From NCBI RefSeq assembly GCF_057098645.1, contig NZ_CM169472.1: a stretch of 64,000 bases of DNA; one strand, 5' to 3'. The position numbers and the translations under genes were made by a program. Of the stretch, positions 40,301 through 41,398 are shown one piece after another. Under the pieces are notes generated by a model that did no database searches, was not told the origin of the DNA, and saw only the letters and a list, made by a program, of their open reading frames with translations. The stretch's first letter is position 1. Every line of letters begins with the position of its first letter.

Positions 40301-41398
40301 ATGAAATTAAAAATAGCGGTGGTTGTAACTGGTTTGTTAGCTGCGAACGTAGCACACGCTGCCGAAGTCTATAACAAGGATGGTAATAAACTCGACCTTT
40401 ATGGCAAGGTTACCGCTCTACGTTATTTTACTGATGATAAGCGTGACGATGGTGATAAAACTTATGCCCGTCTCGGCTTTAAAGGAGAAACGCAAATCAA
40501 TGATCAAATGATTGGTTTTGGTCACTGGGAATATGATTTTAAAGGCTATAACGATGAAGCCAACGGCTCGCGCGGCAACAAGACCCGTCTGGCCTATGCT
40601 GGTTTAAAAATTAGTGAATTTGGCTCTCTGGACTATGGTCGTAACTACGGTGTCGGCTATGACATTGGTTCATGGACCGATATGTTGCCAGAATTTGGTG
40701 GCGATACCTGGAGTCAGAAAGATGTCTTCATGACATACCGTACCACCGGTGTAGCAACCTATCGCAACTACGATTTCTTTGGCTTAATTGAAGGGCTGAA
40801 CTTTGCCGCGCAATATCAAGGCAAAAATGAACGTACTGACAACAGTCATCTTTATGGTGCTGACTACACGCGTGCCAACGGTGACGGTTTCGGTATCTCC
40901 TCAACTTATGTTTATGATGGCTTTGGTATCGGTGCGGTATATACCAAATCCGATCGGACAAATGCGCAGGAAAGAGCCGCTGCTAATCCTCTCAATGCCT
41001 CCGGTAAGAATGCAGAACTGTGGGCCACAGGTATAAAGTATGATGCCAACAACATCTACTTTGCAGCTAATTACGCTGAAACATTAAACATGACCACCTA
41101 TGGGGATGGTTATATCTCGAACAAAGCACAAAGTTTTGAAGTGGTGGCGCAATATCAATTCGACTTCGGCTTGCGCCCATCACTCGCTTACCTGAAATCG
41201 AAAGGCAGAGATCTGGGCCGCTACGGCGACCAGGACATGATTGAGTATATCGACGTTGGTGCGACGTATTTCTTCAACCAAAATATGTCGACCTATGTTG
41301 ATTATAAAATCAACCTGATTGATGAAAGCGACTTTACCCGTGCCGTAGATATTCGCACCGATAACATCGTCGCAACGGGCATTACCTATCAGTTCTAA
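40301..41398 (+). CDS. yddL: Intact general porin (OmpC/OmpF/OmpN-family, divergent), at the yddL position
   Basis: 365 aa with signal peptide ([20 protein letters not shown]) and C-terminal ...GITYQF; gene symbol by position only. Confidence 0.8.

Follow-up and report, generated by a model that had tools for sequence, protein, structure and literature searches.

The porin gene and its setting

We analysed an open reading frame (ORF) of the porin type that lies between yddG and narU in a 64,000-nt stretch of Escherichia coli DNA, referred to here as the window. A first-pass annotation, made from the letters alone, had described a porin of 365 aa between yddG and two LRR genes. Our six-frame ORF list recovered this ORF at exactly 40301..41398, with an ATG start and on the plus strand, and its neighbours were as described. 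On the 5' side, yddG (39160-40041) matches the NCBIfam YddG equivalog model with E 8e-142. The 3' side has the two leucine-rich-repeat (LRR) ORFs, followed by narU and narZ. The genes fdnG (with an in-frame TGA), fdnH and fdnI lie upstream of yddG and the porin on the opposite strand. The features of the locus are collected in Table 1.

Table 1. Features of the porin locus, in window coordinates
Feature	Coordinates	Strand	Description
Inverted repeat CTGCCGGG...CCCGGCAG	40047..40069	+	Directly after the yddG stop codon; read from the sequence
Inferred promoter	40192..40228	+	-35 TTGTTT at 40192-40197, 18-nt spacer, -10 TAAAAA at 40216-40221
Shine-Dalgarno AAGGA	40287..40291	+	9 nt before the ATG; also in Salmonella and C. 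koseri
Porin CDS	40301..41398	+	365 aa; very probably the intact form of K-12 yddL and the E. coli orthologue of Salmonella OmpD
Signal peptide, predicted	40301..40360	+	20 aa, cleavage after AHA; by comparison with OmpC
Possible RybB seed target UAGCGGUGGUU	40314..40324	+	+14..+24; position homologous to the RybB site of Salmonella ompD
Loop L3, pore eyelet	40640..40750	+	Residues 114-150; PEFGGD, D127, E131, R147 and the unusual Y146
Intrinsic terminator GACCAGCCC-ttctct-GGGCTGGT and T-run	41410..41440	+	12 nt after the stop codon
AT-rich Escherichia-specific insert	41441..44284	+	LRR1 41562-42827; LRR2 42869/42890-44146; not part of the porin unit
Deletion 1 of K-12-type strains	40582..42113		Porin 3' 817 nt, intergenic sequence and first ~550 nt of LRR1; ~1.5 kb
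Deletion 2 of K-12-type strains	42446..43086		Between LRR1 and LRR2

The encoded protein covers the Pfam Porin_1 profile (PF00267) from end to end, with residues 26-365 on profile positions 1-337 of 337 (E 2e-133), and its proposed place in the OmpC/OmpF/OmpN family is sound. Sequence matches in the PDB to OmpK36, OmpC, OmpK37, PhoE and OmpF extend over residues 21-365 (E 1e-127 to 1e-100). The signal peptide and the C-terminal YQF that had been called typical of porins are both present. In alignment the mature protein begins exactly as OmpC does, and it ends in GITYQF with the aromatic (Phe) insertion signal in place. RefSeq/PGAP names the gene product "porin OmpC" in every carrier, but this name is a subfamily label and not a statement of orthology. 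We considered an orthologue of OmpC and rejected it. The two proteins share family and fold at an identity of only 61.6%, the NCBIfam "porin OmpC" subfamily model is passed by only 4 bits (487.9 bits against a cut-off of 484), and the micF and rcsD genes that adjoin true ompC (K-12 b2215) are not neighbours of the window gene.

An AF2 model built from a 37-sequence alignment contained 16 strands and an N-terminal piece (mean pLDDT 75.5, pTM 0.73). Foldseek aligned this model with OmpC (2J1N), OmpK36 and OmpF at TM scores of 0.86-0.92. The constriction residues of OmpF (K16, R42, R82, R132, D113 and E117) are all conserved, as K36, R57, R96, R147, D127 and E131 in the numbering of the window porin, and the PEFGGD motif is present in the L3 eyelet. 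Residue mapping did not find the anion-selectivity lysines of PhoE in the window porin. The position of the pore-lining K125 of PhoE is held by Tyr146, beside R147, and by Gly in Salmonella OmpD; this tyrosine could narrow the eyelet. The gene encodes an ordinary porin with nothing mechanistically unusual. Its precursor would be exported by the Sec system and cut after AHA, and the BAM complex would then insert the protein through the C-terminal YQF. The resulting pore should admit small hydrophilic solutes through the L3-constricted channel and, by analogy with related porins, may also admit beta-lactams and carbapenems.

The porin reads as an independent transcription unit with its own predicted promoter, Shine-Dalgarno sequence and intrinsic terminator. 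The inverted repeat that follows yddG was not reported by a terminator scan, as it has no T-run after it, but the yddG transcript probably ends at it, which would set yddG apart from the porin unit. We placed the promoter by alignment with the Salmonella ompD leader and its published 5'UTR of 69 nt (PMC3333887). This alignment predicts a transcript start at G40228 and a 5'UTR of 73 nt; a consensus promoter scan chose other, weak candidates. Downstream of ompD, Salmonella and C. koseri have a hairpin homologous to this terminator (CCAGCCC...GGGCTGG, then Ts).

Distribution of the gene and its remnant in K-12

The K-12 reference has no full-length gene at this site, in keeping with the pseudogene that the first-pass annotation had placed there. 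Only yddL (b1472, 291 nt, 96 aa) represents the porin in MG1655, where it is followed by yddK and the pseudogene yddJ in the interval between yddG and narU. yddL is the same gene as the window porin, with its first ~280 nt and the entire upstream region 98% identical. Alignment of the window with the K-12-type locus gave three collinear blocks (39000-40581, 42114-42445 and 43087-46000), separated by two deletions. The junction of deletion 1 is a CGGCAA(G) microhomology, and that of deletion 2 falls within a shared ATTGATTTATC. Given these two deletions, yddL reads as a stump of the porin gene: it corresponds to the window from 40301 to ~40581 (the 5' quarter of the porin), runs into the out-of-frame middle of LRR1 and stops after 96 codons. 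By the same alignment yddK/yddJ reads as an LRR1-LRR2 chimera. Our two-deletion reading differs from the published one, in which an ancestral island was "disrupted by insertion of yddK" (PMC3079680). A third state of the locus is found in GSH8M-2, where 40161-44173 is replaced by IS1.

We counted these states in 5,426 complete E. coli genomes with a 1,500-nt query, for which all matches were at least 95% identical. The segment missing in K-12 is present in 1,118 genomes (20.6%), 1,101 of which have at least 80% of it covered. About 3,160 genomes (~58%) match over the first ~480 nt of the query only, which is the K-12-type stump, and 1,149 (~21%) have no match. The gene is thus a true presence/absence polymorphism in E. 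coli, as its suspected strain specificity had implied. Carriers include O157:H7 EDL933, O55:H7, O145 RM9872, EAEC 042, IAI39 and many animal and human isolates.

All six of the E. coli alleles that we retrieved at full length are intact. Between them there are only 1-5 amino-acid differences, but as many as 39 synonymous ones. Nearly every allele pair gives a dN/dS of 0.02-0.07 (for instance with 37 synonymous changes to 3-4 non-synonymous ones), and dS reaches up to 0.18; the exception is a pair that differs at just three sites. These low ratios indicate purifying selection on the protein and surface loops that are not hypervariable within E. coli. The phage or colicin receptor polymorphism proposed in the first-pass annotation, if understood as variable surface loops, was therefore not seen among these six alleles.

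The nearest relative of the window is O145 RM9872: across 7 kb the two are separated by 5 SNPs and one 3-bp indel. Two changes are private to the window allele, a 3-bp deletion that removes Val6 of the signal peptide relative to the 366-aa allele found in the other E. coli strains, and K327Q at a nearly invariant Lys. An exact-match look-up did not find the 365-aa protein among ~15 billion database proteins, and the 366-aa allele occurs on at least 1,000 contigs. We used the exact-match result alone, because the cluster look-up mixed the porin with LepA proteins through a database quirk. Both EHEC EDL933 (Z2239; 98.2% nucleotide identity) and EAEC 042 (Ec042-1601, "ompD") carry the same gene at the same locus and encode intact proteins of 366 aa, from which the window allele differs by the absence of Val6 and by K327Q.

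The intact gene is already known and annotated, having been noted earlier in pathogenic strains. The locus corresponds to O-island 62 of EDL933 (Z2239-Z2242) and to orfs 1601-1599 of EAEC 042 (PMC3079680), and the 042 genome paper describes Ec042-1601 as an "apparently functional ompD" (PMC2808357). A literature search for Z2239 returned nothing beyond PMC3079680. The yddL papers that we found concern only the 96-aa K-12 fragment, which a 2023 study handled as an uncharacterised beta-barrel protein (PMC9976479).

Descent of the porin and of the adjacent LRR genes

We compared the window porin with its relatives. Identity is 77% to the syntenic porin of C. koseri, 73% to Salmonella OmpD, 68% to NmpC/Lc and 59-62% to OmpC, OmpF, PhoE and OmpN of K-12, and the last of these values makes the earlier description of the protein as divergent a fair one. 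In alignments with OmpN, NmpC and OmpD the porin groups with OmpD/NmpC. A neighbour-joining (NJ) tree likewise placed the gene within the OmpD/NmpC clade, apart from OmpC, OmpN, PhoE and OmpF. The Escherichia sequences sit on a long branch in this tree, so the case for strict orthology draws mainly on synteny and on homology of the flanks, and less on topology. One apparent nearest full-length relative, with 85% identity, proved to be a mosaic on a 2.1-kb metagenome scaffold. Its first ~360 nt are ~65% identical to the window and lie beside drpB (the yedS locus), and over its remaining 740 nt and a further 200 nt of downstream sequence it matches the window at 98-100% identity. This sequence is most likely an assembly chimera, and we left it out as evidence.

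The gene order around the porin is conserved beyond E. coli. In both Salmonella and C. koseri the order is fdnI-fdnH-fdnG (minus strand), yddG, porin, GFA, the MFS pump gene smvA, a TetR gene, narU and narZ. The same flanks as in the window were found at one Salmonella, two C. koseri and one E. albertii locus, and in E. albertii a porin interrupted by IS1 occupies the same site. The proximal ~150 nt upstream of the porin, including the Shine-Dalgarno sequence, align with Salmonella and C. koseri; the distal upstream sequence is not alignable. Measured against Salmonella, synonymous divergence (dS) reaches 2.25 in the porin, 2.19 in yddG and 2.09 in narU, values that are saturated and make this a coarse test. 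A porin dS like that of its neighbours is consistent with vertical descent and gives no sign of recent import. Together with the synteny in Salmonella, C. koseri and E. albertii, it indicates that the porin is ancestral at this locus.

The first-pass annotation had also described the porin as AT-rich like the LRR genes. We did not find this. GC content is 44.8% in the porin (GC3 45.4%), against 34.1% in LRR1 and 34.0% in LRR2. Comparison genes have 49.8% (yddG), 44.7% (K-12 phoE) and 46.6% (K-12 ompN), and in composition the porin resembles a minor porin gene of E. coli rather than the LRR insert. The homology shared with Salmonella and C. koseri ends at ~41440, past the porin terminator, and restarts at ~44285, upstream of narU. 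The 2.8-kb, 34%-GC LRR stretch, whose second gene is annotated espR1 in O157, sits where Salmonella and C. koseri have GFA-smvA-smvR. These breakpoints mark the LRR stretch as a separate insert, with the porin outside it.

The implied common origin of the porin and the LRR genes fails on the same observations. In its full form, such an origin would make the porin a strain-specific foreign gene, brought in horizontally on a single island ("O-island 62") that also carried the AT-rich LRR genes. The DNA that is extra relative to K-12 does span the 3' part of the porin and LRR sequence, hence its description as one O-island (PMC3079680), and the porin has a lower GC content than its flanks and is bordered by AT-rich intergenic regions. 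However, the porin exceeds the LRR genes by ~10 points of GC and matches phoE and ompN. The same gene occupies this site in Salmonella, C. koseri and E. albertii, all of them without the LRR genes, Salmonella homology spans the porin terminator before it breaks, and porin dS is like that of yddG and narU. These findings already contradict acquisition as one island, and we regard it as very improbable.

The name OmpD has been applied loosely to three E. coli loci: nmpC, an NmpC-type gene near yedK, and the yddL-locus porin. Only the last is syntenic with Salmonella ompD. In the literature ompD is usually paired with nmpC in E. coli (the two are equated in PMC2808357 and PMC3333887), and we asked whether the window gene is itself a lambdoid-prophage porin of the NmpC/Lc type. 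It belongs to the same broad clade, and some sources name its relatives "outer membrane porin protein LC". Nevertheless, no phage genes lie near the porin, its flanks (fdnGHI-yddG and narU-narZ) are core metabolic genes, and the syntenic OmpD and Citrobacter porins are nearer to it than NmpC/Lc is. Synteny contradicts a prophage origin, to which we give almost no credence. The "ompD" of E. coli Nissle 1917 is a separate NmpC-type gene, located between yedK and ybcM-ybcL-emrE, and the high expression reported for it (PMC11610980) was accordingly set aside as expression evidence for the yddL-locus porin. That yddL, rather than nmpC, is the K-12 counterpart of ompD is not clearly stated in the literature.

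We are highly confident that the window gene encodes a classical trimeric, 16-stranded general-diffusion porin, that it descends vertically in Escherichia as the orthologue of Salmonella OmpD, and that K-12 yddL is its deletion remnant.

Expression and comparison with known porins

We measured codon bias by ENC and with a table derived from ompC and ompF. ENC is 50.6 for the window gene, compared with 29.0 for K-12 ompC, 33.6 for the C. koseri orthologue, 34.5 for Salmonella ompD and 46.3 for K-12 phoE. The Salmonella and C. koseri orthologues are codon-biased like major porins, whereas the window gene is unbiased, like the conditionally expressed phoE. As a codon proxy only, the ENC of 50.6 argues against high expression and against the status of most abundant porin, which OmpD holds in Salmonella (PMC4215857). 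Neither expression nor protein data on the E. coli gene turned up in the papers that we searched, and we found no experimental paper on it. We infer that the gene is expressed. The loss of codon bias, taken with recurrent inactivation by deletion and IS elements, suggests a minor or conditionally expressed porin in Escherichia, unlike the dominant one of Salmonella. The region upstream of the porin has a GC content of 29%. AT-rich upstream regions are often silenced by H-NS, and the gene could therefore be quiescent like ompN or nmpC.

A stronger version of this idea holds that the gene is intact yet silent and decaying, adds nothing to the outer membrane and is heading for the pseudogene state of K-12. 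The AT-rich upstream region and the codon bias lost relative to the Salmonella and Citrobacter orthologues would fit such a gene. It is kept in only ~20% of genomes and has been inactivated independently and repeatedly (by the K-12-type deletions, by IS1 replacement in GSH8M-2 and by IS1 in E. albertii), and the window allele has its private changes at Val6 and Lys327. Selection on the protein nevertheless appears to continue, as dN/dS is 0.02-0.07 over alleles with dS up to 0.18. The predicted promoter, Shine-Dalgarno sequence and terminator are preserved, and the pore, folding and export signals are all intact, which argues against a silent, decaying gene. We consider this outcome unlikely and favour a minor or conditionally expressed porin.

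Small-RNA control of the gene appears to differ from that in Salmonella. The duplex predicted at the possible RybB site has an energy of -14.6 kcal/mol in the window (13/200 shuffles as good) versus -18.3 kcal/mol in Salmonella. Our procedure recovered the MicC target at codons 23-26 (+66..+79) in Salmonella (-15.8 kcal/mol; 4/200 shuffles as good) and in C. koseri (-15.7 kcal/mol; 0/200). No significant MicC seed duplex was found in the window, where the best candidate reached -8.7 kcal/mol and 118/200 shuffles were as good. The 12-nt site reads GAGGUAUAUAAC in Salmonella ompD and GAAGUCUAUAAC in the window, with two mismatches. These comparisons suggest that the MicC site has been lost and the RybB site weakened. 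Folding of full-length SdsR duplexes gave energies no better than those of shuffles, even in Salmonella, and an Rfam scan of 38900-44600 returned only a chance miRNA match (E 0.95). The MicC site is a regulatory trait of Salmonella ompD and does not define the gene family.

These features can be combined into a tentative proposal that we think possible but would not bet on. The Escherichia orthologue of OmpD would have been demoted to a minor, niche-specific pore with an eyelet narrowed by Tyr146, without MicC control and with weakened RybB control. Recurrent loss would be offset by retention in ~20% of genomes through a specific benefit, and the porin would measurably alter how carbapenems and cephalosporins enter, or how far antibodies cross-react with Salmonella OmpD. 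The practical value of the gene is modest and concerns annotation, antibiotic entry and immunity. OmpD orthologues of Enterobacter hormaechei import carbapenems and affect virulence (PMC11874173), which suggests a possible role in antibiotic entry here as well. By this analogy, the additional porin that a fifth of E. coli strains keep intact could matter once OmpC and OmpF are lost. Salmonella OmpD is a target of protective antibodies, according to work cited in PMC2808357.

We compared the window porin with the systems that it most resembles. The prophage porins NmpC and Lc (of DLP12 and PA-2) and the YedS-type porins of E. coli share its OmpD/NmpC subclade at 66-71% identity, but their loci are elsewhere, in prophage remnants, between yedK and ybcM, or at drpB-yedS, and are not syntenic with ompD. 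Salmonella OmpD (STM1572), a major general porin, is encoded at the same place, downstream of yddG and between fdnGHI and narU-narZ. It is of the same length class and has the same constriction residues, and the homology extends to the proximal promoter, 5'UTR, Shine-Dalgarno sequence and terminator of its gene. Divergence between the two proteins is concentrated in the external loops, where identity is 58%, compared with 80% in strands and turns. Loops L1, L2, L4 and L6 of the window porin differ from those of OmpD, with L4 8 residues longer and L6 5 residues shorter. Finally, the window porin is followed by the LRR/EspR1 genes, whereas Salmonella ompD is followed by GFA-smvA-smvR.

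The window porin: private changes and a mixed database cluster

The porin allele in the window carries two private changes. A 3-bp deletion at 40315/40316 removes Val6 of the signal peptide, and a C at 41279 produces K327Q in periplasmic turn T7, at a position where Lys is almost never replaced. No exact match to the protein occurs among ~15 billion collected sequences. The 366-aa allele of other E. coli strains falls in a 90% cluster that mixes LepA (elongation factor 4) members with porins and has a LepA protein as its representative. Because of this representative and the mixed membership, the full-length E. 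coli porin cluster was missing from the homologue search.

Features of the window and the compared loci
Feature	Location	Strand	Description
CoA-transferase/3-hydroxybutyrate gene cluster	window 22675-29420		
fdnG	window 35881-38928	-	two ORFs: 38341-38928 and 35881-38292
LRR insert	window 41441-44284		GC 34%; carries two LRR genes
LRR1	window 41562-42827		421 aa
LRR2	window 42869/42890-44146		espR1 (T3SS effector) in O157 RefSeq annotation
VgrG (type VI secretion tip protein) ORF	window 58621-60144	-	507 aa
Porin orthologue	L016 (E. albertii CP034213.1) 6137-8014		IS1-split
Mosaic porin	L018 810-1907		ENA metagenome scaffold, 2107 nt
NmpC-type porin	L022 11960-13042 = NZ_CP022686.1 526960-528042		E. 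coli Nissle 1917; 360 aa

Disrupted, mosaic and NmpC-type porins elsewhere

In E. albertii an IS1 insertion splits the porin orthologue. The DNA downstream of it is rearranged and contains IS1, an MFS gene that has been shortened, and genes of the RHS and VgrG types. The porin on the metagenome scaffold has a composite structure. Its 5' third is yedS-like and adjoins drpB; its 3' two-thirds, together with the next 200 nt downstream, match the window locus at 98-100% identity. We consider this mosaic to be probably an assembly chimera of paralogous porin genes, though it could, less probably, stem from genuine gene conversion involving the yedS and yddL loci. The NmpC-type porin of Nissle 1917 is flanked by yedK and by ybcM-ybcL-emrE, which are DLP12-like remnant genes. 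The highly expressed Nissle gene published under the name "ompD" is apparently this one, which shows that OmpD is used as a name for non-orthologous E. coli genes.

Other features of the window

The CoA-transferase cluster encodes a divergent LysR regulator, 3-oxoacid CoA-transferase subunits A and B, acetyl-CoA acetyltransferase, 3-hydroxyacyl-CoA dehydrogenase and 3-hydroxybutyrate dehydrogenase, as well as a 463-aa protein with no NCBIfam match. The cluster resembles an island for the use of acetoacetate and 3-hydroxybutyrate; K-12 is not known to have such a cluster between the ddp operon and maeA. An in-frame TGA makes fdnG show up as two ORFs. The gene is not a pseudogene: formate dehydrogenase-N is known to use this TGA to encode selenocysteine. 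Gaps at 55245-57267 and 60144-60987 surround the VgrG ORF.

The LRR genes and the origin of K-12 yddK/yddJ

The N-terminal and LRR parts of the LRR1 and LRR2 proteins resemble SlrP/SspH/IpaH-type effectors, and no E3-ligase domain was detected in either protein. Intact LRR1, of 421 aa, is present in the window, RM9872, IAI39, 2020CK-00188 and VCSW7, where PGAP mostly annotates just a partial pseudogene; the O157 gene is cut to 169 aa. Comparing window segments 40582-42113 and 42446-43086 with K-12 (L002/L011) revealed two short-homology deletions. They joined the middle of LRR1 to the 3' part of LRR2, and K-12 yddK/yddJ is the resulting chimera. An inserted gene, the earlier suggestion (PMC3079680), is not what it is. 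In Salmonella and C. koseri, the site taken by the LRR insert in the window is instead occupied by GFA-smvA-smvR.
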